From Acidimicrobiia bacterium (lineage in GTDB: Bacteria > Actinomycetota > Acidimicrobiia > Acidimicrobiales > JACDCH01), in assembly GCA_013694495.1 (NCBI GenBank), contig JACDCH010000199.1:1-40068 (forward strand): a stretch of DNA of 40,068 nt, given 5' to 3'. The notes beneath the pieces were generated by a model that saw only the letters and a program-made list of their open reading frames with translations, searched no databases and was not told where the DNA came from. Position numbers and translations under genes: made by a program. Below, in pieces: positions 5,439-39,734 of the stretch (its first letter is position 1; each line of letters starts with the position of its first letter).

Positions 5439-5444
5439 CACCAT

Positions 5445-19800: not shown

Positions 19801-20274
19801 CGGCGCAAGGCAGAAGCGTTCCTCAAGGACCACCTCGGCGAAGAGATCGTCGCCAAGGTCCGAAGCGGCGCACCTCTCACGGCGGCCGACATCGACGAGC
19901 TCCAGCGCATCCTCGTCGCCGCCGGAGTCGGCAACGACGACACCTTCGCCGAAGCCTCTACCAAGGCTGGCAGCTTCGGGCTGTTCATCCGCTCGATCGT
20001 CGGCCTCGACCGCGCCGCCGCCAAGGCCGCCTTCGCCGACTTCCTCGACGACAAGCGCTACACCGCCAACCAGATCCGCTTCGTCACCCTGATCATCGAC
20101 GAGTTCACAGCCCGAGGCGTCGTCGACGCCCGGCGGATCTACGAGTCGCCGTACGACGGGCTCGCTCCAGAGGGACCTGAGGATCTGTTCAGCGAGCAGG
20201 ACCTCGACCGACTCTTCGCCTCTCTTCGCACGCTGACCGAGAACGCATCTGCCGACCTGGAGACCGACGCATGA
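16864..20274 (+). CDS. hsdR: Type I restriction endonuclease R subunit (DUF4145 N-term, EcoEI-like C-term)
   Basis: YVDYVL...VVEAKK nuclease, MATGSGKT, DEAH, TAT, MLDTGIDVP, FWQMLGRGTR; TGATG coupling. Confidence 0.97.
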   Translation: MASQFAFLEAEFGDFYDLSGKAESYCLGDPTAGMIYARKALESMVTWAFEFDKAFTLPFEANLNAYLHEPSFKNLHSGNLFKAARKIQQVGNRAAHDTKPPSRTDAVEVLSALFKISMWFGHRYGRTSKPDLSTRFDPNLLPDTPEAARRTRKEREELEQRLDDEVALAAEAKAALAAAEHSLAELEASHAALVAQVAAAKKAAEQTVPDEAFDWSEHETRQWKIDHLLAEAGWNVDAPNVREFEVTGMPTESGLGYVDYVLWGDDGLPLGVVEAKKTLKSPDVGQQQAKLYADCLEQMFGQRPLIFATNGYEHWIWDDTRYPKRSVQGFWTEDELALAIQRRSNRKPLSSLSVNTAIAGRPYQERAIRSIAEHFDDDNQRKALLVMATGSGKTRTTIALVDLLMRANWVKRVLFLADRTALVNQAVNAFKAHLPDSSPVNLVTEPNEEGRVYVSTYQTMVGKIDEFVGDGTRRFGVGHFDLVIIDEAHRSVYRKYRGIFEYFDSLLVGLTATPREEVDKNTYELFDLAPGMPTDEYSLDDAIDDGYLVPPKALSIALGFVREGIRYDELSEDEKDQWDEIDWGEDEEGNPLDPPDDVSAAAVNKFLFNTDTVDKVLAHLMTDGIRVAGGDRLGKTIIFAKNQRHADFIGERFDANYPQYKGGFARVITHSVNYGQSLIDAFSIAEKVPHLAISVDMLDTGIDVPEVVNLVFFKLVRSKTKFWQMLGRGTRLCEDLFGPGDHKTEFKVFDFCQNLEYFSQNIAPAEAASGPPLKEEIFTARLDLIKAFDTLKIDRPARDFVVGDLVITIDSMNTNNFLVRPHAELVERFKDPGAWQVLTVTDVADLANRVAKLPDQLDPEHVDAKRFDVLVLNCQLGLLNGLPYEQLRRRIVDIASALEDQQTIPAIAEQLELIQAVQADEWWVDATYSMLEEVRRKLRLLVPLIERSKKHIIYTKLTDTMGDATEIDLPGTASDFAQFRRKAEAFLKDHLGEEIVAKVRSGAPLTAADIDELQRILVAAGVGNDDTFAEASTKAGSFGLFIRSIVGLDRAAAKAAFADFLDDKRYTANQIRFVTLIIDEFTARGVVDARRIYESPYDGLAPEGPEDLFSEQDLDRLFASLRTLTENASADLETDA

Positions 20275-22550
20275 GCACCCAGCGCTTCTCGCATACCCAG
20301 TACCCGATCAACTCGCTGGTCGAGCAGATCGACAGCGGCGAGCTGAGCCTGCCCGACCTCCAGCGACCGTTCGTCTGGAACCGGTCGCGTGTCCGCGACC
20401 TCTTCGACTCGCTCTACCACGGCTATCCCGCCGGGTACTTCCTGTTCTGGTCGACGCCTGCGGCGGTCGACAGCCACTCGGTGGCGACGTCGGGCGGCAA
20501 GTCACAAGTCCTCAAGATGATCGTGGATGGCCAGCAGCGGTTGACCAGTCTCTACGCGGTCCTGAAGGCCAAGGACGTGGTGACCGAGGACAACGAACTC
20601 CAACAGATGCGGATCTCGTTCAACCCGTTCACCGAGGAGTTCGCCGTCGCAGACGCGGCCCGTGCCAACGATCCTGAGTGGCTCACGAGCATCTCCGAGA
20701 TCTGGAACTCGCCGAAGGGCGAATACGGATTCATCAGCTCCTTCATCAAGGGCGTTCGTGAGAACCGCGGCCTCACCGATGACGAAGAACAGCTCGTCGG
20801 TGAGCGACTCGGGCACCTCGCCGGGCTGAAGAACTACCAGTTCTCTGCGCTCGAACTCTCGGCCGACCTCGACATTGATGACGTCGCCGAAGTGTTCGTG
20901 CGGATCAACTCGGCGGGCATCGATCTGAATAGCGCCGACTTCATTCTCACTCTGATGTCGGTCCACGTGAAGGAGGCTCGCCACGAACTCGAGGACTTTG
21001 CCCGCGAAGCCAAGATCCCGTCGACGAAGGGCGCATCGCCGTACAACCACTTCCATTCGCCGTCGCCCGACCAACTCCTCCGCGTCGCGGTCGGCCTCGG
21101 CCTGAAGCGTGGGGTGCTCCAGAACGCGTACCAGGCGCTGCGGGGCCGTGATCCGAAGACCAAGGAGGTGTCGGAGGCGCTGAGGGACGAGCAATTCGCC
21201 AAGCTGCTCGCCGCCCAAGAGCACGTGCTAGACCTCACCAACTGGGCCGACTACATGATCGCGGTGAAGCGGGCCGGCTACCGATCCGGCGACATGCTCA
21301 CCTCCAAGAACAACTTCCTGTACTGCTACCTGTTCTTCCTCATGGGCCGTCACGAGTACGGCGTCGGCAAGAGCGAACTGCGCGAGGCGATCGCCCGTTG
21401 GTTCTTCATGGCGTCGCTCACCGGTCGGTATACCGGAAGCCCCGAGACGATCCTCGAGGCCGACCTACGACGGTTCTCCGATGCGGAGACCGCCGATGAC
21501 TTCGTCTCCGTCCTCGACGGAGTCATTGACACTCAACTCACGTCCGACTTCTGGAGCGTGACGCTGCCGGACCTGCTGGATTCGTCCGCAGCGTGGAGCC
21601 CCTACCTGTTCGGGTACTACGCCAGTCTCAACCTGCTCGAGGCCAGGGCCCTGTTCTCGAACATGAAGATCAACGAGCTGTTCGACCCCGGCGTCAAGCA
21701 GACCAAGAGCCCCGTCGAGCGACACCACCTCTTCCCGAAGGCCTACCTCTCGTCGATTGGCATCACCGGGACCACGCGCACGAACCAGATCTGCAACTTC
21801 GCGTTCGTCGAGTGGGCCGACAACATCGCCATCTCGGACACGAAGCCGGCCGAGTACTTCCCGGAGTACTTCGCCAAGCTGCCACCGAGCGACCAGGAGC
21901 AGGCCCGGTTCTGGCACGCCCTTCCTCCCGGGTGGGAAGACATGGAGTACTTCGAGTTCCTCCGGGAGCGCCGGAAGCGGATGGCCAAGGTTGTCGAGAA
22001 GGGATTCGAGCGGCTCCGGTCCGGTGTCCCGCACGAGACGAAGCCGCACGAAGCGGCGCTCCCGACGGTCTCGGACCTCCTCCGGCACATGGAGACCAAC
22101 CGGGTCGAGTTCAAGCGGTCGGCGCGCGCTTCGCTCGAGAACGACGCCCCCGAGAAGGTCATCAACGAGGGCGTCGTCAAGACCGTCGCTGCGTTCCTGA
22201 ACTCGTCGGGCGGGACACTCGCAATCGGCATCACTGACGACGGCGACATCTGCGGCATCCAGCCCGACCTCGACTACAAGCACCAAGACCTCGACGGCTA
22301 CCAGAACTGGCTGACGACGCTCCTCGTCAACAGCATCGGCGGGGGTGCGGTCGGGGCGCACGCCGGAATCCGTCTCGAGCCGGTGGGCTCCGAGGTCGTC
22401 TGCCTCGTCGATGTCTCGCCGTCGCCCGTTCCGGTCTACGCGAAGACCACGAAGGGCGACGTCTGCTTCTACGTCCGCATGAACAACACGACGAGGATGC
22501 TGGAGGGCCCTGACCTCCCCGCCTACATCGACGGCCACTGGAAGAAGTAG
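20271..22550 (+). CDS. GmrSD-type (DUF262 + HNH-like) nuclease fused to C-terminal Schlafen/AlbA_2 domain
   Basis: LQRPFVW, IVDGQQRLTSL, FVRINS (GmrS); ERHHLFPKAYL...NQICNF...NIAISD (GmrD HNH); ETNRVEFKRS...KTVAAFLNSSGGTLAIGITDDG (AlbA_2). Confidence 0.88.
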   Translation: MSTQRFSHTQYPINSLVEQIDSGELSLPDLQRPFVWNRSRVRDLFDSLYHGYPAGYFLFWSTPAAVDSHSVATSGGKSQVLKMIVDGQQRLTSLYAVLKAKDVVTEDNELQQMRISFNPFTEEFAVADAARANDPEWLTSISEIWNSPKGEYGFISSFIKGVRENRGLTDDEEQLVGERLGHLAGLKNYQFSALELSADLDIDDVAEVFVRINSAGIDLNSADFILTLMSVHVKEARHELEDFAREAKIPSTKGASPYNHFHSPSPDQLLRVAVGLGLKRGVLQNAYQALRGRDPKTKEVSEALRDEQFAKLLAAQEHVLDLTNWADYMIAVKRAGYRSGDMLTSKNNFLYCYLFFLMGRHEYGVGKSELREAIARWFFMASLTGRYTGSPETILEADLRRFSDAETADDFVSVLDGVIDTQLTSDFWSVTLPDLLDSSAAWSPYLFGYYASLNLLEARALFSNMKINELFDPGVKQTKSPVERHHLFPKAYLSSIGITGTTRTNQICNFAFVEWADNIAISDTKPAEYFPEYFAKLPPSDQEQARFWHALPPGWEDMEYFEFLRERRKRMAKVVEKGFERLRSGVPHETKPHEAALPTVSDLLRHMETNRVEFKRSARASLENDAPEKVINEGVVKTVAAFLNSSGGTLAIGITDDGDICGIQPDLDYKHQDLDGYQNWLTTLLVNSIGGGAVGAHAGIRLEPVGSEVVCLVDVSPSPVPVYAKTTKGDVCFYVRMNNTTRMLEGPDLPAYIDGHWKK

Positions 22551-22560
22551 GCGCCGGACC

Positions 22561-23307
22561 GTGTCCCATCCGCTCGCCACCTCGGTCGACTGGTTCGAGG
22601 AGGGCCAGTGGCCGGCGCTCAGGTGCGGATTGTGCGGACGTGGACGGCTGAGTGTTGAGGGGGATGAACGGACCAGCGAGGACGGACAGTCCGAACGCCT
22701 ACATAGCCACGAAGCCTGGGAGCCGGAATGGATCTCCGGGACGTTCTCAGCGACTCTGCAATGCACCGACCCCGAGTGCGCCGATCGCGCTGAGTGTGTG
22801 GGCGAATGGCGCGTTGACTACGCATCTCGGAGCCGGCACGGCGAGCAGTACGCGAACCATTTCAAGATTCGAGCCGTGTGGCCCTCGCCGGTGCTGATCG
22901 ACCTTCCGGACGGCACGCCGGACCAGGTCCGGGACTTGGTGAAGTCGGCTGCGGCAATCCTTTGGCTCGATCCAAGCTCAGCGGCGAACCGGCTGCGCAC
23001 CAGCATCGAGCACCTCCTGACCGCCCAGCACGTAAACCGTCAGAAGCGGGCCCCGAACAAGAAGCTTCACAAGCACAGCCTTCACGAACGCATCGATCTA
23101 TTTCGAGCGAGGCGTCCGGATGTGGCCGAGCAACTTGAGGCGGTGAAGTGGATCGGCAACGAAGGCAGTCACGAGGAGGGCCTGTCAGTCGACCAGGTTC
23201 TGGCCGGGGCGGAGCACCTCGAACACGCGTTGGACCTTCTGTACGACCCCGCACCGGCGACTCTCAAAGCGCGCGCTCGGAAGATCAACAAGCGGCGCGG
23301 TCTCTGA
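22561..23307 (+). CDS. DUF4145 (HEPN superfamily) protein with Cys-rich N-terminus
   Basis: CGLC and CTDPEC; SAANRLRTSIE...SLHERI...AVKWIGNEGSH. Confidence 0.85.
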   Translation: MSHPLATSVDWFEEGQWPALRCGLCGRGRLSVEGDERTSEDGQSERLHSHEAWEPEWISGTFSATLQCTDPECADRAECVGEWRVDYASRSRHGEQYANHFKIRAVWPSPVLIDLPDGTPDQVRDLVKSAAAILWLDPSSAANRLRTSIEHLLTAQHVNRQKRAPNKKLHKHSLHERIDLFRARRPDVAEQLEAVKWIGNEGSHEEGLSVDQVLAGAEHLEHALDLLYDPAPATLKARARKINKRRGL

Positions 23308-23321
23308 CCAGCAGGGGTGGG

Positions 23322-23367
23322 CGATCTCTACCGGATCTCTACCGGACGGGTAGACATCGGGTAGATC
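23322..23367. repeat. Arm-type repeats: two direct and two inverted copies
   Basis: (GATCTCTACCG)x2, then GGTAGACATC (23349-23358) and GGTAGATC (23360-23367), degenerate reverse complements. Confidence 0.78.
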
Positions 23368-23462
23368 TGGGCAACACCGTTCAGCACGCCTAACACACGA
23401 ATGCCCTGTTCAGAGGCACTTTTTGGCATCGTCCAACACCGTCCGAAAGGGCGCTGTTCACA

Positions 23463-23484
23463 GTTCAAGTCCCCCCTCGCCCAC
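23463..23484 (+). repeat. att core 2 (right end of element 1 / left end of element 2)
   Basis: Identical to 551-572. Confidence 0.95.
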
Positions 23485-23554
23485 TCAGGACGGGGTATCT
23501 GTCCCGGGAACCGAAGGCGACGACGACGGGCTGAGCGTCGCGGACGGTGGGTCG

Positions 23555-23927
23555 ATGACCGACCCACGCACGGAGTACCGCCCTCCACCACCTCCCCGTC
23601 GACGACCCCCCATCGAGCCGGTGGTCCTGGGCTGTCGTCACTCCCGATCCGAGCGGCCGGGTCCAGCTCCCCGCCGCCGCAATCGAGGTCCTCGGCGCCG
23701 GGCCCGCCCGCGCCCGCATGGCCGGCGGTGTGCTCGTCCTGCGCCAGGTGGATGGACCGGGACGTCGGCTCGGGATCGACCGTCGCGGTCGGTGCTACCG
23801 GCCCGCCTGGCTCCGCCGACCAGCGGTTCTCGTCGCCACCGATGCAGCCGCGGCCGTCGTCCTCGTCGCCGACGCTGCGGTTCTCGGTCCGATCGGCGAG
23901 CAGTTGGCTCGGGCGGCCCGGACATGA
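23555..23927 (+). pseudogene. MraZ/AbrB-like double-domain protein, frameshifted near the 5' end (decay or sequencing error)
   Basis: The 23718 frame extends upstream as SSRWSWAVVTPDPSGRVQLP...GIDRRGRCYRPAWLRR; ATG 23555 (MTDPRT) matches the paralog start MNRPRT but is out of frame; stop overlaps the recombinase ATG. Confidence 0.7.
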
Positions 23928-24949
23928 ACGCCCGGCACCTTCGGGCCCGGGCGCTGCTCGCCGAGGCCCACGAACTCGGCGTCGACCTCGCCGATCTCCT
24001 CGCCGCGGCCGAACCCGTCGACCTTCCCACCCTCGCCGGATGGATCACCGAGATCGAGACGACCTTCACCCCGTCGACGGCCCGGACCTACCGGCCCTAC
24101 TGGAACCTCGCTATCCGGATGCTGGGTGATCGACGCCTCGCCGAGCTCACCCCCGGCGACCTCGCCGCCGTCGTCCAGGCCGCCGGCGACCGGGCCCGGG
24201 CCAGCCGGCCCACCAGTAGCGGCCGGTCCGCCGAGGAGACCTGCGTCGCCGCCCTCCGAGCGCTCTGCGGCCGCGCCCTCGCCGCGGGACAACTCCGCGT
24301 CGACCCCGCCGCTACCCTCACCAAGCCCCGCAGGGCACGCAGCCGCCGACGGGCCCTCGACGACGCCGAGATCGCTGAGCTCGCCGACGCCGTGCGCCTC
24401 ACCAGCCGCGACCCGGCCCTCGACCTGCTCCTCGTCCGCTTCCACCTCGAGACCGGCGCCCGACGCCAGGGCGCGCTTCGCGTCGGGCCCGGTGATCTCG
24501 ACCGGCGGCGGTCCACGGTGTGGCTGCGCGAGAAGCACGGCGACCAACGCGAACAGCCCGCCTCGCCCTCACTCCTCGCCGCGCTCGACCGGCTGCATCG
24601 CGGCCGCACGACCGGCACTGACGACCGGCTGTTCATCGACCGCAGCGGGACAGCGATCACCGCCCGCCACTACGACCTGTTCTTCACCCGGGCGCGCTCG
24701 GTGCTCACCTGGGATCCCCGCACACCGGTCTCGGCCCACGTGCTCCGCCACACGGCCATCACCAACGTCGCCCGACTCGCCGGCTACGCCGTCGCCCAGA
24801 CTTTCGCCGGCCACACCCCACCCACCGTCACGGGCCGCTACATCCACGCCAGCCCTGCCGAGGTCGCAGCTGCGGTCGCCGCGCTCACCGGCGAACCCCA
24901 TCCGCTCGCGAGCGGTCCCGCGGCTCGCCGTCGGTGCGCTCGTGGGTAG
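23924..24949 (+). CDS. Tyrosine recombinase (341 aa)
   Basis: ETGARRQGAL (R), WLREK (K), SAHVLRHT (HxxR), FAGH, TGRYIH (Y); ATGA coupling. Confidence 0.92.
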   Translation: MNARHLRARALLAEAHELGVDLADLLAAAEPVDLPTLAGWITEIETTFTPSTARTYRPYWNLAIRMLGDRRLAELTPGDLAAVVQAAGDRARASRPTSSGRSAEETCVAALRALCGRALAAGQLRVDPAATLTKPRRARSRRRALDDAEIAELADAVRLTSRDPALDLLLVRFHLETGARRQGALRVGPGDLDRRRSTVWLREKHGDQREQPASPSLLAALDRLHRGRTTGTDDRLFIDRSGTAITARHYDLFFTRARSVLTWDPRTPVSAHVLRHTAITNVARLAGYAVAQTFAGHTPPTVTGRYIHASPAEVAAAVAALTGEPHPLASGPAARRRCARG

Positions 24950-25184
24950 CAACCCGGGACACACCGATCGACACGGACAGGCGATGCGCGACCGTCAGGG
25001 CACCGTCGGCGACTCGATCTCGAGCCAATCGAATGCCTCGCTGACCGCAGTCCGGTCGGTGCCGAACCTGGAGGCTCGATCCGGTGGCCGGCTCGGGACG
25101 TCGACTTGGGATCGACCGCCGTATCCGCTGCTCCCTGGCAGGCATGGCTCCGACCGGCGCCGGCCGGTTCCAGGGCTGAGCGGC

Positions 25185-25721
25185 CTACCTGCGGGCGCAG
25201 CGCTGAATGGTGTGCCGGACCCGCTCGAGGATCGGCGGCAGCACCGGAAGGTCCAGGCTGCGCTGCACGAGCAGCGTGTCGTCGATCAGATCTGCGGAGA
25301 GGAGTGCGGTTGCGAACTCGAGGTCCTTCTCCCGGCCGGCGACGAGCTTGGCGAGCACGAGGTCGTGCGGATCGAGGCAGACGGCGGCGCTGTCCGGGTT
25401 GGTCGGGTCGAAGGGGACGAGCCGATCCCGCCATCCCGCCGGGAGCACGGCGGTCGAGATGCTGACGCCCTGCGCGTAGTAGCCGAAGGTCGCGTGGAAG
25501 GCCGAGAGTTCGCCGATGGCGCCGTCGACGTCGTCGGACTTCACGTTGTCCGGGTCGTCCCAGAACGCCACGTCGGCCTCGATCGAGCGGGTCGCTTCCT
25601 CGGGCAGGTCGTCGGCGTCGTGGCTTCCGAGGATCGCTTGGCTGCCGAGCACGACGATGTTCGGGTCCTCGACGATCTTCGAGGCAGCTCGAAGGATGTG
25701 GGCGAGCTGCTCGCGGTTCAT
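25185..25721 (-). CDS. DUF6036-like nucleotidyltransferase
   Basis: MNREQLAHILRAA...VVLGSQAILG...RSIEADV...GELSAFHATFGYYAQGV...LPAGWRDRL...AKLVAGREKD; ATGA coupling. Confidence 0.8.
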   Translation of the reverse strand: MNREQLAHILRAASKIVEDPNIVVLGSQAILGSHDADDLPEEATRSIEADVAFWDDPDNVKSDDVDGAIGELSAFHATFGYYAQGVSISTAVLPAGWRDRLVPFDPTNPDSAAVCLDPHDLVLAKLVAGREKDLEFATALLSADLIDDTLLVQRSLDLPVLPPILERVRHTIQRCARR

Positions 25722-26239
25722 GCGGCGCCCGACGTTCGCCACGAAGCGAGGACCCGCTGACGCTCCCGGTCGGAGAGCAACCCGGCGAACGGCGCGTTCT
25801 GGCGGAGCTCGCGCCCCCGTAGCGAGCGTGAGAGGTACAGCTCGAGCAGCCGGTCCAGCGGTCCGTCGACGAGGCGCTGCCATTCGGCCAGCCAGCGGCG
25901 GGTCTCTCCCCTGGACTGCTCCCGCATGAGGTCGAGGTTCGTGCGGGCCAGCGTCATGGCCTTGTCGGGGTTGGCGACGATCTTTCCGACGGTGGCGTAG
26001 GCGAGCCAGAGGCTGCGGCGCTGGTCACGGGTGACTCGCTCGGATCGGGTCCGGATGGCGTCGATGTCGCCGCGTCGGACGCGCCGGTGCCGTCCGACGA
26101 GGGTGAAGGGCAGGTCGCCTCGTTCACAGAGATCGACAACGTGCTGACGGGTGGAGCTCAGGAGCGCGGCCGCCTCACCCGTCGTGAGCAGCTCCTCCGG
26201 GTCGGTTGACGACACGGTGTCGTAGACGGCGGTTCTCAC
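25718..26239 (-). CDS. HTH_17 (excisionase-type) DNA-binding protein with C-terminal domain, probable antitoxin
   Basis: LLTTGEAAALLSSTRQHVVDLCERGDLPF...GRHRRVRR; C-term RELRQNAPFAGLL; start uncertain (26239 or 26215). Confidence 0.8.
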   Translation of the reverse strand: MRTAVYDTVSSTDPEELLTTGEAAALLSSTRQHVVDLCERGDLPFTLVGRHRRVRRGDIDAIRTRSERVTRDQRRSLWLAYATVGKIVANPDKAMTLARTNLDLMREQSRGETRRWLAEWQRLVDGPLDRLLELYLSRSLRGRELRQNAPFAGLLSDRERQRVLASWRTSGAA

Positions 26240-26246
26240 CTCCTGC

Positions 26247-26310
26247 AATGTACCGCTAAACGCAATATACCCAACACGCAGCCCTTCATTGTGTTTATTG
26301 TGGATGTCAA
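26247..26310 (-). promoter_or_regulatory. AT-rich promoter/operator for the HTH-NTase pair
   Basis: Minus strand TTGACA (26305-26310), CACAAT repeats, TTGGGT-16 nt-TACATT 7 nt before GTG 26239. Confidence 0.5.
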
Positions 26311-26400
26311 CCGCTCCGGGCTCGACACACTCGGGTAGCGCTTGCGCCAACTCCGACCGACTGCAGGTGCCGTTCGTCCGCCTTCGTTCCGGGATTGCCC

Positions 26401-26565
26401 CTAGTGTCCCGGCAGGTTGGTCCGTTGATGAAATGGGCGAGTCAGATTCGGTCCTGGCAGGGACGCAGGCCGACGGACTCCCCCAGCGAATGCGAGGCCG
26501 AGGACGCAGCCAGGGGCGGATCTGGCCGACCGATTTCGCGGCGAGTCAGCCTGCCGGGACACTAG
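26401..26565. mobile_element. MITE-like element (165 bp) with CTAG-terminated inverted repeats
   Basis: CTAGTGTCCCGGCAGG (26401-26416) and CCTGCCGGGACACTAG (26550-26565), perfect 16-bp IR; non-coding interior. Confidence 0.7.
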
Positions 26566-26905
26566 GAGACTGTTGAACAACCGGTCGGCGGGTCGTCGTC
26601 GTGGGGTCGCGACGGGTCTGGGGTTGGCTGAACCGATCGTGGGCTCAGGCCGCAGTTGTGGAAGCCGCCCACCGCCAACACCGTCACGGCCGACGCCACC
26701 GTCCTGCCATGAAGCGTTCCATGTCCACTGCTCCTCGAGTCAGGTGGGACCCTCGCGGTCTCACCGTCGACCATGCGGCAGGTCGACCCCCACCGGTATG
26801 GGGGAGAACCGACAATTGGGGGCCGGACAGCCCCGTTTCGTGCCGGACCAGGCTCGTGGTGTCGCGAAGACCCGGCCGACCTGCCCGATGGGGGAAACTG
26901 GCCCG

Positions 26906-29797
26906 ATGGTGCGGGACCTGCTCTGTCCCACCCTCGTCGGGCGGGACGCGGAATGGGGGCGACTCGAGGCGGCGCTCGACGCGGTCGGTGACGGGGACGG
27001 CGTGGCCATCGCCCTGCTCGGCGAGGCGGGCATCGGCAAGTCGCGCCTGGTGAGCGAGCTCGCCGGCGCGGCCGCAGAGCGAGGGGTACCCGTGCTCGAC
27101 GGCCGGGCCGTCGACGCCCCCACGCCGGTGCCGTTCCGGCCGCTGTTCGAAGCGCTGGCGGGGTGGTCCCGCGACGGTGGTCCCGACTCGCACCCGGAGC
27201 TGGCGGGGATCCGGGAGGTGCTGGCCCCCATCGTTCCGGCCTGGCGCCCCGGCGGCGAGCCCTCGTACCCGGTGTCCGCGATGGAGCTCGGTGACGCGCT
27301 GCTGCGCCTGCTGACTGGGATCGCCGGGGCTCGCGGCTGCGTCCTCGTGCTGGAGGACCTGCACTGGGCCGACCCGGACACCGCTGGCGTCCTCGAGTAC
27401 GTCGTCGACAACCTGGCCGGGAGCGGCGTCCTGTGCGCCGTGACGGCGCGTCCGGAAGGCTCCGGTGATGCTCTCCGGATGATGCGGGCGCTCGCGTCGC
27501 GCCGAGCGGTGACGGTGCTCGAGCTCCAGCGCCTCGGTGGTGACGACCTGGCCGAGATGGTCCGGCGGTGCCTCCGAGCCGACGAGCTCTCCGAGAACGT
27601 CGACACCATGGTCCGCCGCTTCTCCGACGGCCTGCCGTTCCTGGTGGAGGAGCTCCTCGCGTCGACCGTGGCCAGCGGCGCCCTCGTCGACGGACCCGAG
27701 GGCTGGCACGTGGATGGCGCTGTGGGGCCGGTGCTCCCGCAGGGATTCGAAGAGCTCGTCCGCCGCCGGATCGGGGCGCTGAGCGAGGACGCCGCGAGCG
27801 TGCTCCTGGCGGCCGCCGTGCTCGGCCGGCGCTTCGATGCCGAGCTGCTGCCGGCGATCACGGGACGACCGATCGGCGAGGTGGTCGCAGCACTCCGCAG
27901 CGGGGTGGCGGCGCAGCTCCTGGTCGTCGACCGGGTGGACCCAGGCTCGTTCGAGCTTCGCCACGCGCTCACGCGGGATGCGCTGCTCGCGCAGCTCTTG
28001 CCGATCGAGCGGACCGCGTTGGCCCGCAAGGTGCTCGCTGCGCTCGAGGAGCACGAGCCGGAGCTGCCGGGGGAACTGACGGAGCTGGCCGCATCGCTCG
28101 CCGAACAGCTCGGCGACGGAAGTCGAGCCGCCGAGCTGCTCCTCGTCGCCGCCCGACGTGCTGTGAGGCGAGGTGCGTTCTCGAGCGCCGAGCCGGTGCT
28201 CGACCGAGCCTGGCGGCTCGTGCGCCGTGACGACCCGGTCTGGCCGGAGGTCGGGAGCGAGCTCATGGCGGTGCTGACCGAGACCGGGGACATCGATCGG
28301 GCCCTCGAGGTGGGCGGGCGGTTGCTCGCCGACCTTCCCGCGTCGGTCGACGCGGCGGCGATCCACCTGGCGATGGCGCGAGCCGCCGTCGCGGCCGGCC
28401 GAACCGGCAGCGCGCTCGCATCCCTGGAGCGCGCGCGAGTCGCAGAACCTGCCCACCTCGCAGCGGTGGCGGCCGATGCCGACGTGATCGCAGCGGACAT
28501 CGCGGCGGAGGCGCGCCGATTCGAGGAGGCCGAGCGTCTTGCCTCCGGCGTCCTGGCGGTGACGGATCCGGAGGTGGATCCGGCTCGTGCGTGCCACGCG
28601 TTGCTGGTCCTCGGTCGGTGCGCCCGTCTGCAACGGCAGGACGAGGCGGCACACCTGTTCGACCGAGCGATCGCGATCGGTGAGGCCCACGGGCTGCACG
28701 CACTGCGGTTGCGCGCGGTCATGGATCGGGCCTGGTTCGAGCTCGTGAGCTTCGGTGACGGACAGCTGATGACGGCCGCACGCGACGAGGCCGCCGGGGC
28801 CGGTGCACTGGTGGTCGCCGCCCACCTCGACAACTTCCTGGCGTGGTCGGCGATCGACCACCACGCGCCGGAGCGAGCGGTCGCCGCCGCGGAGCGGGGC
28901 GCCGCCCTGGCCCGGAAGCTTCGCCTGGATGTCCTCCAGGGGATGCTCCTGGGGGGTTCGATCGTGGCCGCGGCCCAGCAGGGCGACCGCGCCCTGATGG
29001 AGCGTCGGGCCGCCGAAGCTGCGGCCCTCCCCGACGACCACGCCAACCTCGCCATCCTCGAGGCGTGGGCCCGGGCCGAGCTCGTGCTCCCGCGCGACGA
29101 CCTCCCTCGACTCCACGCCGAACTGGAAGCCGCGATGGTGCTGCTCCGCGAGGCGCCGGAGTTCCCCATCCCGGCACGCGGGTTGTTCGCCCTCGTCAGC
29201 GTGTTCCTCGACCGTGACGCCGAGGCGGCGCTCGCCGAACTCGGTGCCGACCCGGCGTTCAACCACGCGATGAGCAGGGCCCACTGGCACTACGCGAACG
29301 CCATCCTGCTGGGCCGGGCCGGCGAACACGCCGAAGCGGCCAGCGAGGTCGCCCGTGGCGACTCGGCCTCGACGCCGTTGGCGTGGTTCCAGCACCACGC
29401 CCGACGCCTCGTCGCGGAAGCGGCGCTCGCCGACGGCTGGGGCGAGCCCATCCGGTGGCTCCGCGAGGCGCACCTCGACTTCGCGGGCCGGGGTGACGAG
29501 GACCTTGCCGCGTCGTGCCGGCGCCTGCTCACGAAGGCGGGGGCACCGGTGCCCAGGAAGGCCTCGGCCGACACCGGCGTCCCGGTGGACCTCCAGGCGA
29601 AGGGCATCACCGCTCGAGAGGTCGAGGTCCTCGAGCTCCTGGCCGAGGCCATGCCCACCCGGGAGATCGCCGAGCGACTGTTCCTGTCGCATCGGACGGT
29701 CGAGCGCCACATCTCGAACATCGCGGTGAAGGTCGGCGTCCCCGGTCGGGCCGGGGTCGTGGCCTTCGCCGCCCGGTTCGCCGCCTCGGCGGACTGA
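26906..29797 (+). CDS. Large ATP-binding LuxR-family regulator (AAA_16 + helical repeats + LuxR HTH)
   Basis: LVGRDAE, GEAGIGKSRL, LEDLHWAD, GLPFLVEE, FELRHAL; C-term ITAREVEVLELLA...EIAERLFLSHRTVERHISNI. Confidence 0.92.
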   Translation: MVRDLLCPTLVGRDAEWGRLEAALDAVGDGDGVAIALLGEAGIGKSRLVSELAGAAAERGVPVLDGRAVDAPTPVPFRPLFEALAGWSRDGGPDSHPELAGIREVLAPIVPAWRPGGEPSYPVSAMELGDALLRLLTGIAGARGCVLVLEDLHWADPDTAGVLEYVVDNLAGSGVLCAVTARPEGSGDALRMMRALASRRAVTVLELQRLGGDDLAEMVRRCLRADELSENVDTMVRRFSDGLPFLVEELLASTVASGALVDGPEGWHVDGAVGPVLPQGFEELVRRRIGALSEDAASVLLAAAVLGRRFDAELLPAITGRPIGEVVAALRSGVAAQLLVVDRVDPGSFELRHALTRDALLAQLLPIERTALARKVLAALEEHEPELPGELTELAASLAEQLGDGSRAAELLLVAARRAVRRGAFSSAEPVLDRAWRLVRRDDPVWPEVGSELMAVLTETGDIDRALEVGGRLLADLPASVDAAAIHLAMARAAVAAGRTGSALASLERARVAEPAHLAAVAADADVIAADIAAEARRFEEAERLASGVLAVTDPEVDPARACHALLVLGRCARLQRQDEAAHLFDRAIAIGEAHGLHALRLRAVMDRAWFELVSFGDGQLMTAARDEAAGAGALVVAAHLDNFLAWSAIDHHAPERAVAAAERGAALARKLRLDVLQGMLLGGSIVAAAQQGDRALMERRAAEAAALPDDHANLAILEAWARAELVLPRDDLPRLHAELEAAMVLLREAPEFPIPARGLFALVSVFLDRDAEAALAELGADPAFNHAMSRAHWHYANAILLGRAGEHAEAASEVARGDSASTPLAWFQHHARRLVAEAALADGWGEPIRWLREAHLDFAGRGDEDLAASCRRLLTKAGAPVPRKASADTGVPVDLQAKGITAREVEVLELLAEAMPTREIAERLFLSHRTVERHISNIAVKVGVPGRAGVVAFAARFAASAD

Positions 29798-29818
29798 GCC
29801 CTCCCGCTGCCGCGCCCG

Positions 29819-29857
29819 ATGGGGGTGGATGGGGATCGGAATGGGGGCGGCCCCGAT
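29819..29857 (+). promoter_or_regulatory. ATGGGG(G/A) repeats plus inverted CCCCGAT, probable LuxR operator
   Basis: Copies at 29819, 29829, 29841; inverted at 29851; ATGGGGG also at 26798 and 26888 upstream of the regulator. Confidence 0.5.
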
Positions 29858-29923
29858 GCCACCGAGCCCAAGGAGGCGCATCGTGTGACTCGCACCACGT
29901 CACACCTTCGAGAGGAGCCCAAC

Positions 29924-30388
29924 ATGTCCCCTGAGCCCATGGTCGTCGCCCCGGCGGATCGCCCCCGATCCCTGAACGTCGTCGGCGAGCAGGTCACGGT
30001 GCTCGCCTCCGGCGAGCAGACCGGCAGCTTCGAGATCTTCTTCCAGGCAGGGCCGGAGGGTTGCGGCCCGCCCCCCCACAGCCACCCGTGGGACGAGGCC
30101 TTCTACGTGCTCCGTGGCGAGATCCACTTCGTGGTCGACGGGCTCGAGCGGACCGCCGGGGCCGGCGCCATGGTCTTCGTGCCCGCCGGGACCCTGCACT
30201 GCTTCCGGCTCGGTTCGGGCGGCGCCGAGGCACTGAGCATCACCTCCCGCCCCGGGGCGGCGGCGATGTTCAGCGACATCGACGCCGAGATCTCGCCCGA
30301 CGCCCCCGACCTCGGGAAGCTCGTGGCCGTGGCGCTCGCCCACGGGCTCGACGTCGCCGTGCCCCCGCTCGAGGAGGTCGCCGGCTGA
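29924..30388 (+). CDS. Cupin domain protein
   Basis: GPPPHSHPWDEAFYVLRGE...VFVPAGTLHCF; GAGGAG RBS. Confidence 0.9.
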   Translation: MSPEPMVVAPADRPRSLNVVGEQVTVLASGEQTGSFEIFFQAGPEGCGPPPHSHPWDEAFYVLRGEIHFVVDGLERTAGAGAMVFVPAGTLHCFRLGSGGAEALSITSRPGAAAMFSDIDAEISPDAPDLGKLVAVALAHGLDVAVPPLEEVAG

Positions 30389-30940
30389 TGGACGCCATCG
30401 ACGCCCTCGAGCGCAGCCACGGCCACCTGCTCGTAACGGTCACCAGCATCTCCACCGAGGAGCTCTCGAACCCCTCCGCCTGCGACCAGTGGGATCTGCG
30501 CACCCTGCTGAACCACATCCTCGGCGCCGGGTGGATGTTCACCCTCGCCAACCGTGGCGAGGCCGCCGGCGAAGACGGCGGCGACCTCGTGGGCGACGAC
30601 CACGTCGCCGCCTGCGCAGCCCTGGCCGAGGCCAACCTTGCGTCCTGGCGGGCCGGGACGCGCTGGAGGCGAGCGGGCGTTCCCGTTCGGGACCTTCCCG
30701 GCGCCGATGGCCCTGCTCATCAACGTCGGCGAGGTCGCAGTGCACGCATGGGACCTGGCCAACGCCACCGGCCAGGACCCCACGATCGATCCCGAGGTCG
30801 CAGCGCTGCTCCTCGACTTCTACCGCAGCCTCCCCCTGGAGGAGTTCCGCGCCCACGGGGCCTTCGGGCCCGAGGTCGAGATCGATCCGACGGCACCGGC
30901 TGCCGACCGCATGCTCGCCCTCCTCGGCTTCCGACCGTAG
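30388..30940 (+). pseudogene. TIGR03086 / MDMPI-DinB-like metal-binding protein, frameshifted around 30650-30672
   Basis: PSACDQWDLRTLLNH in one frame; EVAVHAWDLANATG...AFGPEV...DRMLALLG in another. Confidence 0.8.
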
Positions 30941-31004
30941 GCCTCGCTCCCGATCGACCGGATCCGCAGCGCGACCCAGGAGAGGACCGCGTGCAGTTGG
31001 TTCA

Positions 31005-31034
31005 GTGCTGGCCTGCGGAGACGCAGGTCAGCAC
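31005..31034 (+). terminator. 13-bp hairpin with GAGA tetraloop, possible terminator
   Basis: GTGCTGGCCTGCG-GAGA-CGCAGGTCAGCAC (one G-T pair); no U-tract. Confidence 0.45.
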
Positions 31035-31194
31035 CGCGCTCGCTCCGCGCTGCCACGTGCTCGGTCAGGGTACGACGCCCCGGCCAGGACGGGTCCTTGC
31101 CAGTGGGCGGGCGGTCGGCGATGCTGGCGCCGGTCCCGAGGAGGTCACCATGTCCCGCTCGACGGCGGGGCAGGTGCCCCGGAAGTGGTCGGTG

Positions 31195-31212
31195 AGTCCC
31201 CCTCGCCCACCA
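31195..31212 (+). repeat. att core 3 (shorter tRNA 3'-end copy ending in CCA)
   Basis: AGTCCCCCTCGCCCAC-CA versus tRNA AGTCCCCCCTCGCCCAC (one C fewer); followed, as at core 2, by GGGGTA and the MraZ-like/recombinase module. Confidence 0.85.
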
Positions 31213-31292
31213 GAACTGGGGTAACCACCCCACATGCGGGTGATCGTCACGGAACGGCACGGCAGGGTTCGTGACCAGCGTCGGGGATGCGC

Positions 31293-31687
31293 ATGAACCG
31301 CCCCCGCACCCCACCCGCCGCCCTGCCCGACCTCACCGGCCCACCCCTCCCGGCGTCGCGGTGGCAGTGGTCGGCCGCCGAACCCGAACCTTCCGGCCGG
31401 CTCCTTCTCCCTCCGGTCGCCCGCCGCGTCCTCGGATCGGAGTCCGCCTCGCCGCAGGTCGTCTCGGGCAGCGTGCGCGGCGACACGCTCGTCATTCGTC
31501 CCGAGCACGCAGAAAGCCCTGCGATGACGCTTGACGCCCGCGGCCGGATCTACCTGCCGGTGTGGCTGCGCCGCCACCCCGGCTTCCTCATCGGACCCAC
31601 GCCACCGGCGCGAATCCGGCCGTCGTGATCGTGCCCGCCACCTTGTTCGACGCCGTCGGCGACCAGCTCCTGGAGCGGCTCCGATGA
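31293..31687 (+). pseudogene. MraZ/AbrB-like double-domain protein, frameshift near 31594
   Basis: EPSGRLLLPPVARRVLG and TLDARGRIYLPVWLRR; continues in a shifted frame ...AVVIVPATLFDAVGDQLLERLR* overlapping the recombinase ATG. Confidence 0.72.
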
Positions 31688-32723
31688 ACCGCCAGCTCCG
31701 AGCCAAGATCCTGATCGAAGAGGCCCGAGCCCTGGGCATCGACGTCGACGACCTTGTCGCCGCCGCCACCGGCGGAGCCACGCCGCTCACGCTTGCGGCG
31801 TGGTCGATGAGATCGCCCCGACCTTCGGTGGGTCGACCGCCGCCACGTACCGCCCCTACTGGCGTCTCGCCACCTGGCTGTTCGGCGACCGGTATCTGGC
31901 CGAGCTCACCACCACCGACCTCGCCGGGGTGGTCGACGCCGCCGCAGAGCGCGCCCGCACCCACCGGCCTGACTCGACCGGCCGGGCCTCCCGGGAGACC
32001 TGCATCGCTGCCCTCCGCGCCCTGTACGTCCGGGCCGTCGACGCAGGCCACGTCGCCACGAACCCGGCCGCCGCGCTCCGCAAGCCCCTGCGCACCACGA
32101 GTCAACGCCGAGCCCTCGACGACCACGAGCTCACCGACCTCGCCGACGCCATCCGGGCCACCAGCACCGACCCCGACCTCGACCTGCTCCTCATCCGGTT
32201 CCACCTCGAGACCGGCGCCCGCCGTCAAGGCGCCCTCAACCTCCGACGCCGAGACATCGACAGCAACCGCGCCACCGTGTGGCTCCGGGAGAAGAACGAC
32301 ACGACGCGCGAACAACCCGCCTCGCCCTCCCTCGTCGAGCGTCTGATCGCAGACGCCGACGGGCGAAACGGTGTCGGGCGAGACGATGCCGTGTTCCGGA
32401 ACCGACGAGGAGAGCCGATAACGGGACGCCGCTACGACCGGATGTTCGCCCGAGCCCGGGAGCGTCTGGGCTGGGACGACCGCACACCAGTGTCGGCCCA
32501 CGTGATGCGGCACACCGCCGTCACCCGCATCGGGCGCATCGCCGGGTATCCCGTCGCCCAAGCCTTCGCCGGCCACGCCCCGCCCACCGTCACCGGCCGC
32601 TACCTCCACGCCACGCTCGCCGACGTCGCAACCGCCGTCGCGACCCTCACGGGAGAAGCACACCCCCTCGCTCACCCCGCCCGAGACAGCAGCCGGCGCA
32701 TCTGCGCCAACCTTCGACGCTGA
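31684..32723 (+). pseudogene. Tyrosine recombinase, paralog of 23924-24949, frameshift near 31803
   Basis: MNRQLRAKILIEEARALGID...LAAW, then (one G missing) VDEIAPTF...ETGARRQGAL, WLREK, SAHVMRHT, FAGH, TGRYLH. Confidence 0.88.
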
Positions 32724-32750
32724 CTCAGTTCGGGGTCAGGTCGTCGCGAC

Positions 32751-32805
32751 CTTCGGGGACAGTCACCCGGCCCGGACCATCCCACCTACCCGGCGTTGGA
32801 GGGCA
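32751..32805. repeat. Inverted repeat A, left arm (55 bp)
   Basis: CTTCGGGGAC...CCGGCGTTGGAGGGCA; reverse complement matches 38650-38704 exactly over 16 and 10 terminal bp with identical overall length. Confidence 0.85.
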
Positions 32806-32831
32806 GGTGTAAGAGGCGATCTGGCCGCACG

Positions 32832-32941
32832 TTAGGTGGCAGCTCGACGGCTCGCATACGCGCCGTTCGGTGCGGACCTAGCGGAGGCTCTCGGCCGGGA
32901 TTATGGCCGGGTGATATCCCGCGTCCTTCACCGGCACATGG
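32832..32941 (+). repeat. Spacer motif cluster shared with 38726-38810
   Basis: TTAGGTGGCAGC (32832), ATACGCGCCG (32856), GATATC-N10-CACCGGCAC-N-TGG (32913-32941). Confidence 0.75.
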
Positions 32942-33042
32942 AGGTCATGTTCCAGGCTGACACCGCCGGGCGTTGTGGGGTACCTGACCGACGTGTGGAT
33001 TCGCGTGGGCTCGCGCTGCGCGGTGTCGGGCAACATCCAGTC

Positions 33043-33801
33043 ATGGATCCCGTCGTGCTCCAGGACGACGAGCACTGTCCCGTGCTGCTCGTCGACGGCA
33101 CAGTGCGTCGACGAAGACGTTGGTGGTCGACCGCCGTTCATCACTTGCTGTCGTATCTGGCCGACGTCGGCTTCGCCGAAGCGCCGCGACCGCTGGGCTT
33201 CGACAAGGACGGGCGAGAGATGCTCACGTTCATCGAGGGAGATTCCGGCAGCGCTGCTGGCAGGCGGGTCGCGTCCACGACCGCGCTGGTCGAGTTCGCG
33301 GTGTTCCTTCGCCGATTCCACGACGCGGTGCGGGACTATGTGCCGCCGCCGGGAGCTGACTGGGCATTGCCCGCGACCCCGGACGCACCGCCGGCAGGCA
33401 TCTGCCACGGCGACTTCGCTCCGTGGAACGTCGTGTGGTCGGGCGACGCGCCCGTCGGGATACTGGACTTCGATCTCGCTCATCCCGGGCCGGCGAACCA
33501 CGACGTGGCTTACGCGCTGGCGTACAGCGTTCCGTTCCGAGACGACGCTGACACCCGAAGGATGCTGGGCGTCGATCAGATCCCGGACCGTCGCCACCGC
33601 GTTCGGGTCTTTGCCGATGCCTACGGTGTCGACACCGATGGGCTCGTGGAGCGAGTCGTTGCGCGACAGCTCAAGTACGCCCACGACGTCGAGTTGTTGC
33701 GCGAGCGCGGCCTCGTCGCAGGATGGACCTCGCCCGAGTCGATCGCCCGCAACCACCAGATCGCCGCCTGGCTCGCCCGCCACCAGCACCTCTTCCGGTA
33801 G
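33043..33801 (+). CDS. Aminoglycoside phosphotransferase-like kinase
   Basis: AVHHLLSYL...APRPLG...REMLTFIEG, ICHGDFAPWN, ILDFD. Confidence 0.88.
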   Translation: MDPVVLQDDEHCPVLLVDGTVRRRRRWWSTAVHHLLSYLADVGFAEAPRPLGFDKDGREMLTFIEGDSGSAAGRRVASTTALVEFAVFLRRFHDAVRDYVPPPGADWALPATPDAPPAGICHGDFAPWNVVWSGDAPVGILDFDLAHPGPANHDVAYALAYSVPFRDDADTRRMLGVDQIPDRRHRVRVFADAYGVDTDGLVERVVARQLKYAHDVELLRERGLVAGWTSPESIARNHQIAAWLARHQHLFR

Positions 33802-33806
33802 CGGGA

Positions 33807-33843
33807 GCCGTAGCAACTACGGCCGCACGCATGGCGCGTGCGG
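33807..33843. terminator. Two adjacent hairpins between convergent genes
   Basis: GCCGTAG-CAA-CTACGGC and CCGCACGC-ATGGC-GCGTGCGG. Confidence 0.4.
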
Positions 33844-33853
33844 TTGGGATGCG

Positions 33854-33974
33854 CTTCTGGGACAGGTCGGGCTCATGCCAACCACCGGCACCTCGGGGGC
33901 GCTGTCCCACGCCGTTCTGGCCACGCGTTTTGGGATGGCGCGCGGCCCTCGACGTGCACCAAGCCGTCGATCTG
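33854..33974 (+). repeat. Inverted repeat B left arm (33854-33872) plus about 100-bp direct repeat copy (33876-33974)
   Basis: CTTCTGGGACAGGTCGGGC pairs 18/19 with 39735-39753; CCACCGGCACCT...AGCCGTCGAT is colinear with 38791-38890. Confidence 0.85.
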
Positions 33975-34025
33975 TGCGCGGGACCGGGACGGGTGCGTTC
34001 CACCAACCGCCGCGCCTGTGGGTGG

Positions 34026-36944: not shown

Positions 36945-36984
36945 GCCGAAGGACTGCCGCTCCTTGCCTCGCCTTCCGGTCGGC

Positions 36985-37014
36985 GCGGCACGCTGATGAC
37001 ACGAGTATGACACG
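36985..37014. promoter_or_regulatory. 11-bp-period direct repeats, probable SARP binding site
   Basis: GCGGCACG (36985), ATGACACG (36996), ATGACACG (37007) between the divergent regulator and oxidase. Confidence 0.6.
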
Positions 37015-37061
37015 GGGCCATGCGACGGTTCCGGGGACCGTTCACCGACCAAAGGTGCGCC

Positions 37062-38423: not shown

Positions 38424-38649
38424 CATGACCATGCCGACGGGACCTGGGACGGTGATCTACATCGATCGGTCCCCACATGCACGCAGGCCGACGGGATCAA
38501 TTCAAGGTGGCATGCAGGAGAAGGTGGCGGCCCTCAGTCGGGGCACACCAGGAACTTCGTCCTCTCCAAGCGACCTATTCGGCGTCTGCCCCCGGTGGCG
38601 GACGGCGAGGACGTGTCACAGAACGCGCGACGCCTCGCTTCGCCGGAGG

Positions 38650-38704
38650 TGCCCTCCAACGCCGGCTACGCGACGGTGTCGTGACGGCTGACGCGTCCCC
38701 GAAG
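38650..38704. repeat. Inverted repeat A, right arm (55 bp)
   Basis: TGCCCTCCAACGCCGG...GTCCCCGAAG. Confidence 0.85.
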
Positions 38705-38725
38705 CGCGTCGCCGGACATCCCGGA

Positions 38726-38890
38726 ATACGCGCCGATCTGCTGCGCTCGCGGGGCATTCGGGGACGCGATTAGGTGGCAGCGATATCTGGTGCCCTCCAC
38801 CGGCACCTGGGGCGATGCCCCACGTCGTTTTGCATGCACATTCGGGGACACCCGCGCCCTTCGTCGTGTGCGCCCAGAGCCGTCGATGTG
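38726..38890 (+). repeat. Spacer motif cluster and about 100-bp direct repeat copy
   Basis: ATACGCGCCG (38726), TTCGGGGAC (38757, 38841), TTAGGTGGCAGC (38770), GATATC (38782), CCACCGGCACCT (38797), AGCCGTCGAT (38878). Confidence 0.85.
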
Positions 38891-39666: not shown

Positions 39667-39734
39667 GCCGGCGTACCGAGGAGCAGCTGGCGCGTAGCAC
39701 CAAACGCCCGCCGGCTGATGGACGCACTCCTCGG

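Follow-up and report, generated by a model that had tools for sequence, protein, structure and literature searches.

A 40,068-bp contig of an Acidimicrobiia bacterium (GenBank assembly GCA_013694495.1, contig JACDCH010000199.1) contains two copies of a compact integration module, modules 1 and 2, in each of which a small gene is followed by the gene of a tyrosine recombinase. This entire contig, referred to below as the window, belongs to a metagenome-assembled genome of 665 contigs that is 88% complete. The small protein (about 125 amino acids) is predicted to be a single-chain double-AbrB protein of the MraZ fold, with one swapped-hairpin barrel and a DxxxR motif in each half, and the pairing of its gene with the integrase gene is strictly conserved. 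We hold it moderately probable, from the sequences and the structural model, that the MraZ-fold protein is the DNA-binding accessory of the integrase and an autoregulator, in modules of very small (3.5-7.7 kb) elements that target tRNA-Leu genes.

The gene pair was sought in metagenomes and genomes, and the expectation of the original prediction that it would recur elsewhere was borne out. Metagenomes were scanned by integrase alignment and 80 loci were retained of at least 167 matches. As far as the integrase N-terminus and at least 420 nt of upstream sequence were available, the small gene was present in every metagenome locus (53 of 53). Among 400 other genomes of the order, the integrase clade was found at E up to 1e-50 in 13, which with the two copies of the window gave 18 places; two of these were cut by contig ends, and the small gene was recognised by a hidden Markov model at 13 of the 16 testable places; at the other three the ORF upstream of the integrase has GR-type motifs, which sequence comparisons did not confirm. 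The small protein was found at E up to 1e-10 in 9 of the same 400 genomes. A sample of 400 other genomes at the phylum level gave no match at E up to 1e-5, and the family was found only in Acidimicrobiales-type genomes and soil-type metagenomes. A profile search for the small protein over 1.84 billion cluster representatives returned 114 relatives at E ≤ 0.001, 48 of them at 1e-10. The integrase clade comprised at least 418 clusters at 90% identity (E up to 1e-20), and only generic names were attached to it ('integrase', 'XerC', 'tyrosine-type recombinase [Acidimicrobiales bacterium]'). The stop codon of the small gene and the start codon of the integrase gene usually overlapped by 4 nt; ATGA, GTGA or 8-nt overlaps were kept in distant branches, and the overlap was absent in one of six loci examined.

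An AlphaFold2 model of the small protein, built on 36 relatives, had a predicted local distance difference test (pLDDT) score of 91.2. The top 11 rows of a Foldseek search were all MraZ (E 5e-3, TM scores of 0.50-0.56), and VIA-align superposed the model on five MraZ entries across 98-99 residues with Z scores of 10.0-10.4, while the next-best fold reached 4.1. The earlier description of the protein as MraZ-like, which rested on its motifs, is well supported by these comparisons. Both window genes carry two (D/E)xxGR motifs, and the G-R of both motifs was invariant among the 36 aligned relatives. A profile search of PDB sequences gave marginal matches to AbrB/Abh for the first half of the protein and to MraZ for the second. 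In the available part of one published account (PMC12957436), one chain of MraZ forms the barrel that AbrB, MazE and SpoVT form as dimers, the MraZ residues matching the GR motifs read bases of the DNA boxes, and GTG(T/G) is given as the Mycoplasma MraZ box. The small protein falls outside the MraZ family itself on its Pfam score and on its genomic context: matches to PF02381 in 27 of the 36 relatives were below threshold (E up to 1, best 1.8e-5), and in the window and in all relatives examined the gene was preceded by the 3' end of a tRNA gene, or what is left of one, and followed by an integrase.

Neither the window copies nor the 36 relatives matched a helix-turn-helix (HTH) or winged-helix (excisionase) family in Pfam, and no family for the small protein was found in Pfam, NCBIfam or PHROGs, save one antitoxin match in PHROGs (E 0.0074); MazE of Pfam was matched by 2 of the 36 members. 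AbrB and MazE folds are common among antitoxins, and together with these matches this speaks for a small protein that is an antitoxin-like or addiction component, or else unrelated cargo beside the integrase. We consider this very improbable, as there is no toxin partner, the downstream gene was always the integrase, with stop and start overlapping, and the cargo varied whereas the small gene did not. The ESM Atlas returned a best score of 0.82 and nothing usable for the small protein; when the integrase of L006 and its small protein were modelled as a complex, the score was 0.01, which gives no verdict for or against binding; and the diverged small protein of L055, modelled by AlphaFold2 from 3 sequences only, reached a pLDDT of 35 and was unusable.

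The recombinases of the two modules matched PF00589 with 54.8 bits (integrase 1) and 67.8 bits, against a cut-off of 27.1. The catalytic residues R183, K207, H276, R279, H301 and Y310 were present and were invariant or nearly so in the alignment of relatives. The sequence blocks TYRPYW, TVWLREK, REQPASPSL and RTPVSAHV, which had been listed as common to the two recombinases, were indeed seen in both, and the proteins are 62% identical overall. The first 45 residues matched no known family, and the alignment to XerC began at residue 48. The NCBIfam equivalog for XerC was matched with 53.1 bits (cut-off 335) and that for XerD with 40 bits (cut-off 330); unlike XerC and XerD genes, those of the modules are flanked by attachment (att) repeats and variable cargo. 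No Arm-DNA-bind match was found in either module recombinase in a Pfam scan at E up to 1, while the same scan detected one in the integrase of the neighbouring island A (described below); the suggestion that these recombinases have no evident arm-binding domain therefore holds. As judged by these matches, the module integrases are Xer-sized tyrosine recombinases that lie outside both the XerC/XerD chromosome dimer resolvases and the lambda-type heterobivalent integrases. Phage and plasmid collections queried with integrase 1 gave no match. In IMG/VR only integrases of 22-36% identity were found, and no member of the small-protein family.

The loci were then compared upstream of the small gene, where adjacency to tRNA 3' ends had been anticipated. 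In G055 and G075 an intact tRNA-Leu(CAG) gene precedes the small gene by about 75 nt, and the same tRNA gene was found on the upstream side in G304, G222 and G173; the remaining genome loci had a core remnant in the same place, and distant genome loci adjoined tRNA-Leu(GAG) and tRNA-Val. Upstream sequence was sufficient at 41 metagenome loci. A neighbouring tRNA gene or core remnant was found at 31 of them (9 tRNA-Leu(CAG), 9 CAG-core remnants, 10 tRNA-Leu(GAG), 2 GAG remnants and 1 tRNA-Thr(TGT)), and at the other 10 nothing was recognised. The adjacency was thus confirmed, and the junctions indicate that the target is the 3' end of tRNA-Leu(CAG) or tRNA-Leu(GAG), once tRNA-Thr, with a core of about 17 bp. 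Elements bounded by two cores measured 5.3 kb (G075), 3.5 and 4.1 kb (G046), 4.4 kb (G222) and 7.7 kb (element 1 of the window). Their cargo was unrelated from element to element and included a SEC-C protein, a BTAD regulator, a methyltransferase, a PIN protein, an APH-like kinase and SnoaL. No replication, FtsK-like transfer or capsid genes were found among selected open reading frames (ORFs), namely 20 larger ones of related loci and those of window element 1. A contig of another sequencing run, about 97% alike, tracked window element 1 as far as position 31202, which lies within the core, and diverged from there on. Other joints between contigs and the window had sides of 21-28 nt and were treated as spurious, with the exception of a 161-bp deletion mentioned below; only contigs were compared, in which rare excision joints are not visible, and no circular form was seen. 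None of the runs listed for this sequence was an RNA run. At many internal junctions of stacked elements the core had five C where the tRNA has six (window 31195-31210; L006, L038, L039, L041, L068, L075, L078 and L121). Such five-C cores mark either a crossover to the right of the C run or slippage, and they also decide whether a frame across the core stays open.

A conserved site was found next to the core. At a fixed offset, beginning at the seventh base past the core (6 nt between), lies a 16-bp quasi-palindrome of the form xGGGx, four bases, xCCCx. In the window it contains the GGGGTA hexamers at 23492-23497 and 31218-31223. The stems occur in 29 distinct versions. Covariation was computed on 46 distinct sequences: 87.3% of the cells were paired, as against 67.8% in shuffled sequences (a value this high was reached by none of 500) and 34-55% when the partner position was shifted. 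At the second pair of the palindrome, U-A was counted 20 times, G-C 19 times and C-G 4 times. The original prediction mentioned the G-rich direct repeats bound by MraZ; GGGGTA, however, is one arm of a covarying quasi-palindrome and does not form a MraZ-like series of direct repeats.

At the opposite end of the element the 16-mer recurred as its reverse complement, 28-29 nt to the left of the core, in all three non-c2 cognate pairs (c2 being the type of module 2). Identity was 13/16 in window element 1, where 31166-31181 was compared with the reverse complement of 23491-23506, 13/16 in G075b and 12/16 in L121; 1, 0 and 6 of 2000 shuffles, respectively, were as good. In the circular form the crossover region would lie between the two sites, at a distance of about 52 bp from one site to the other. 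We propose that the MraZ-fold protein would bind these matched quasi-palindromes, which flank the crossover site, belong to opposite ends of the element and come to lie side by side in the circle. It would thereby shape the recombination complex and take the architectural part that falls to arm-binding domains and Xis/IHF in lambda-type integrases. Autoregulation is proposed because one candidate site lies just upstream of the small-gene/integrase operon, and binding there may control the protein's own expression. The suggested role as an architectural or directionality factor or a repressor rests on the fold, the position of the gene and the paired sites around the core. As to direction, the sequence would suit a protein favouring integration, like SNJ2 Orf2/3, as well as one favouring excision, like Xis, and does not decide between them.

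It is less probable, and in our judgement unlikely, that the small protein is only an autorepressor of its operon, in the manner of AbrB or MazE, with the upstream palindrome as operator and no part in synapsis or direction. In all lineages the palindrome next to the small gene (P') lies between the core and the operon start, c2 elements have no convincing second site at the far end, and AbrB-fold proteins are classic repressors, as stated in the available portion of PMC12957436. However, the inverted site at the other end in the three non-c2 pairs has no operon to repress, and coupling with the integrase clade at 53 of 53 loci would be unusual for a mere repressor.

The quasi-palindromes could also be additional integrase sites, or hairpins such as an insulator or terminator behind the tRNA gene, while the small protein acts elsewhere. 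Covarying arms are expected of a base-paired stem, T-G pairs occurred 18 times, the site begins 6 nt past the tRNA end, and the non-c2 arm also holds a motif like the T arm of tRNA, which is a candidate integrase site. Yet a matching copy is present at the far end, where there is no tRNA, no T run was seen and no terminator-like site was called, Rfam gave no match at the palindrome, and the G-T cells were not clearly above the A-C cells. We regard this explanation as rather improbable. A scan of 23300-25100 found neither promoter nor terminator; the consensus used may not suit this phylum. The T-arm-like motif (GGTGTTCAAG-like) was observed in non-c2 relatives (L040 (G304), L082 and related loci) 25-80 nt past the core, after the palindrome and with an inverted copy about 30 nt further on. 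Its arms were 11 bp long in G304, and it was absent from window module 2. The motif pair possibly represents extra integrase sites or an RNA structure.

Several points weigh against the proposal that the MraZ-fold protein is an accessory of the integrase acting at paired sites. The Pfam MraZ scores stayed under the cut-off of 23 bits (16.8 for window copy 2, 20.3 for the best single protein). MraZ binds direct repeats, whereas these sites are inverted. In elements of the c2 type the far-end site was weak or absent (11/16, 9-10/16 and 8/16). The palindromes could be integrase sites or hairpins: G-T cells numbered 18 and A-C cells 12, and because this is no clear excess, a DNA site and an RNA hairpin are indistinguishable. 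At three distant loci the AbrB-like GR motifs of the upstream ORF were recognised by eye only; hhalign gave E values of 0.0015-0.015 with probabilities of 3-17%, and Pfam had no match for the three diverged genes. Finally, both window copies are broken, so that activity is not required here.

The position of the core relative to the small gene was also analysed. The small gene was in frame with the core (TCG CCC ACN) in 34 of 49 distinct junctions, and 32 of these frames were open. When proteins were clustered at about 60% identity, 17 of 22 non-c2 clusters were in frame and open (binomial 3e-5 against one third). Module 1 of the window was counted out of frame because of its own frameshift only; the codon boundary at 23486 precedes its ATG (23555) by 69 nt, with an open frame in between. 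Spacer lengths within and between clusters differed by multiples of three (95/98/101/104; 86/95; 215/224/227), and spacers at loci with a clear ATG measured 70, 76, 82, 85 or 94 nt; in the window the ATGs at 23555 and 31287 are 70 and 76 nt past the core. Several lineages had no ATG between the core and the conserved domain. At the other side of the core, 9 of 23 left flanks other than tRNA genes carried a motif like a ribosome-binding site together with a start codon, and in 8 of these 9 the start was in frame and open, 45 nt (once 48 nt) before the core. The example in the window consists of AGGAG, 6 nt and the ATG at 31150, exactly 45 nt before the third core. When cognate ends were joined computationally, an open frame ran from the far-end start into the small gene for G075b and L121. 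A database protein of 171 amino acids (P0006) has exactly this extended form; in further gene calls the start falls within or ahead of the core, in some cases in another frame.

It is possible, though we put it forward tentatively, that the attachment site lies inside a reading frame, and that only the excised circle would join the far-end ribosome site and start, the core, the spacer, the MraZ-fold gene and the integrase gene into one translated unit, which integration would split and so turn off. If this is true, the element would make the accessory protein (in a longer form) and the integrase when it is circular, and would have a built-in topological direction switch that needs no excisionase. 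Three observations count against a frame of this kind: the c2 type has neither the frame bias (7 of 15) nor a far-end start, the five C of the third window core would break the frame for element 1, and open frames are common in DNA this rich in GC. An ORF of 24 codons with a good ribosome site (31150-31224) crosses the third core and ends in the loop of the module 2 palindrome; relatives share its start distance.

The features of the window are collected in Table 1. The original prediction had described, for both copies, an order of core, GGGGTA, a gap of about 70-80 bp, a two-motif gene, an ATGA overlap and a recombinase. The positions and the order were found as described at both copies, including the ATGA overlaps at 23924-23927 and 31684-31687. 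However, integrase 1 is the only intact one of the four module genes; both small genes and integrase 2 are frameshifted in the assembly. In small gene 1 an extra base follows codon 6, as judged against four intact relatives of 123 amino acids (60-71% identity), and the correct frame has no ATG, GTG or TTG ahead of the first motif. Intact relatives of small gene 2, of 133 amino acids, were found in L004-L006.

Table 1. Positions of the tRNA gene, att cores, modules and cargo in the 40,068-bp window.
Feature	Position	Strand	Remarks
tRNA-Leu(CAG)	488..572	+	ARAGORN; Rfam tRNA 54.6 bits; 3' end is the attachment core of all stacked elements in the window
Island A	573..23463		Separate mobilisable island, 22.9 kb, inserted behind the tRNA and ahead of module 1; bounded by exact direct repeats of 21 nt (552-572 / 23464-23484); Pfam
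att core copy 2	23464..23484	+	Equals the final 21 nt of the tRNA; junction between island A (right end) and element 1 (left end)
P' quasi-palindrome, module 1	23491..23506	+	Contains GGGGTA; matches the covarying palindrome position in relatives (alignment columns 8-23; pair counts)
Small MraZ-fold gene, copy 1	23555..23927	+	Broken; 1-bp insertion near 23572-23573; remainder in frame 23574-23924, TGA 23925-23927; three-frame translation
Integrase 1	23924..24949	+	341 amino acids, intact, Xer-sized; start overlaps the stop of small gene 1 (ATGA); PF00589
Cargo of element 1	24950..31149		Pfam; the five genes listed next
DUF6036 nucleotidyltransferase	25185-25883	-	Cargo of element 1; Pfam
HTH_17 protein, 210 amino acids	25718-26350	-	Cargo of element 1; Pfam
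LuxR/AAA_16 regulator	26885-29797		Cargo of element 1; Pfam
Cupin	29924-30388		Cargo of element 1; Pfam
ORF matching no family	30390-30940		Cargo of element 1; Pfam
Right (P) arm, element 1	31150..31194	+	Quasi-palindrome at 31166-31181; AGGAG and ATG 31150
att core copy 3	31195..31210	+	One C shorter than the tRNA; junction between element 1 (right end) and element 2 (left end)
P' quasi-palindrome, module 2	31217..31232	+	Two perfect 6-bp arms, 4 nt between
Small MraZ-fold gene, copy 2 ('c2' type)	31287..31687	+	Frameshift near 31594-31595; last 30 codons in another frame to TGA 31685-31687
Integrase 2	31684..32723	+	Frameshift near 31797-31803
Probable cargo of element 2	32724..40068		APH-family kinase, BTAD/STAND regulator, FAD/BBE oxidase, GNAT; Pfam

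The frameshifts were checked by aligning Logan contigs of public sequencing runs to the region. In the best-matching run (96% of words) the contigs were in full agreement with the window. The frameshift of module 1 was also present in a second run of that study (X2), which has an additional base after 31801; in a run of another study (X3), an additional base follows both 31594 and 31801. Assembly errors were rejected as an explanation, since the same indels occur in independent contigs of the best-matching run and the module 1 frameshift recurs in the second. The module 2 frameshifts are polymorphic between runs and are therefore recent and strain-specific; judging from these contigs, intact versions of module 2 exist in near-identical strains. 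By their sequences, both window copies are the integration modules of two old, decaying members of the small-element family, remnants rather than working modules. Owing to the frameshift in small gene 1, an open frame of 508 codons (23423-24949), with a TTG at 23423 or the ATG at 23555 as its start, passes out of frame through the small gene and continues into integrase 1. This frame is probably an accident of GC-rich DNA.

The window is a pile of elements at one tRNA gene, in which the newest adjoins the tRNA and two older modules stand behind it, each after a copy of the tRNA 3' end. The core 11-mer occurs 3 times in the window, where 0.11 occurrences are expected. No further copies of the core were found in the window, so that the right end of element 2 was not met before the contig end. 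Island A is the newer insertion; it lies outside the small-gene/integrase family and pushed both modules away from the tRNA. According to Pfam it encodes a TrwC relaxase (5970-9239), PRiA4_ORF3/DUF6933, an AbiEii toxin, a type I restriction-modification system, GmrSD and DUF4145, and it has an integrase of 532 amino acids (3355-4953, minus strand) with an Arm-DNA-bind_4 domain. A 22-nt repeat occurs near both of its ends (618-639; 23323-23344), and directly after the one on the right GGGTAGA is found twice; these are likely the arm sites of island A. Integrase 1 was considered as the mover of island A and rejected, because the island has its own integrase and its own arm repeats. The first reading of the window had found no dedicated relaxase or xis gene. 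This stands in so far as the relaxase belongs to the separate island; it does not apply to the window as a whole, which has the TrwC relaxase, a second integrase and, inside element 1, an HTH_17 protein.

Right ends of the island A type (TTCAGAGGCACTTT...) directly precede small-gene/integrase modules in L039 (G046), L008, L135, L076 and L102, and in G046 a left end resembling that of island A comes after the last core. Because island A-like ends stand before modules in these loci and after the last core in G046, the two families are seen to stack in either order. At least two unrelated element families share, compete for and stack at this tRNA site. In the cargo of element 1 the HTH_17 and DUF6036 genes overlap (25185-26350, minus strand) and resemble a cargo-borne toxin-antitoxin or AbiE-like pair; this pair was not seen in any other bounded element that was scanned. 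In a contig of another study, 161 bp (26400-26562) are missing from the interval that separates the HTH_17 gene from the gene of the LuxR-type regulator (side 255).

Modules for site-specific integration are familiar, and genetic engineering employs small tyrosine integrases as tools. To our knowledge, the control of direction in integrases without arm-binding domains is poorly understood. Among tRNA-targeting integration modules, which are of a known kind, those described here stand out by a putative accessory protein of a new class and by the unusual arrangement of their sites. It forms a compact system of a tRNA-Leu 3'-end target, a core of about 17 bp, two flanking 16-bp candidate accessory sites and two genes. 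The constant tie of so large an integrase clade to a MraZ-fold protein points to a new class of integrase partner, and the AbrB/MraZ fold would gain a role outside the transcription of cell-division genes. No described pairing of a MraZ- or AbrB-fold protein with an integrase as recombination partner was found in a full-text literature search, in which papers were mostly judged on less than their full text; this agrees with the original prediction, which knew of no characterised example.

The small protein resembles MraZ (PF02381; 1N0E, 9QLG, 9R4J, 9SZ7) in being a single chain with two AbrB-like halves, each with a DxxxR/GR motif, and MraZ is its sole strong fold match (Z about 10). The G-rich half-sites of the palindrome (xGGGx) are also loosely like MraZ boxes. 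In contrast to MraZ, the small protein is shorter (about 123-133 amino acids), has fewer helices in the model and scores below the family cut-off; its gene stands between an att core and an integrase and does not head a cell-division cluster, and its candidate sites are inverted pairs where MraZ has a row of direct repeats. Actinomycete integrative and conjugative elements differ from the present elements in their replication and FtsK-like transfer genes, which were absent from the selected ORFs scanned here.

With excisionases and other recombination directionality factors (lambda Xis, pSAM2 Xis, TorI, Cox) the module shares a small gene directly upstream of the integrase gene, overlapping frames, a tRNA-targeting element and the proposed architectural binding beside the core. 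The known directionality factors of which we are aware are winged-helix or HTH proteins, whereas the fold here is that of AbrB/MraZ; moreover, the operon is read away from the adjacent core, and the integrase has no arm-binding domain to cooperate with such a factor. The haloarchaeal integrases of the SNJ2 type are similar in combining, as far as the available part of the source tells (PMC5861418), a tyrosine integrase with small accessory proteins and a tRNA target. According to the same part of that paper, Orf2 and Orf3 of SNJ2 are co-transcribed with the integrase and are needed for integration and not for excision. Unlike the present protein, these accessories are coiled-coil and MarR-like, the host is archaeal, the integrase family is unrelated, and homologues of Orf2 plus Orf3 are given, in that part of PMC5861418, for only 5 mobile genetic elements.

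The reading frame across the core, if it is used, would have its own parallels. The att site lies inside a gene in SSV1 (int) and Mx8 (intP), and expression depends on the circle with Pcirc of ICEclc and the junction promoters of insertion sequences. The present elements may be alike in that a frame runs across the core, the start signal lies at the far end of the element and the full unit would exist only in the circle. They would differ in that the split gene is the leader of an accessory gene and not the integrase gene itself, and in that the arrangement is predicted here from sequence. If the frame across attP is real, it would provide a mechanism in which integration itself splits the expression unit.

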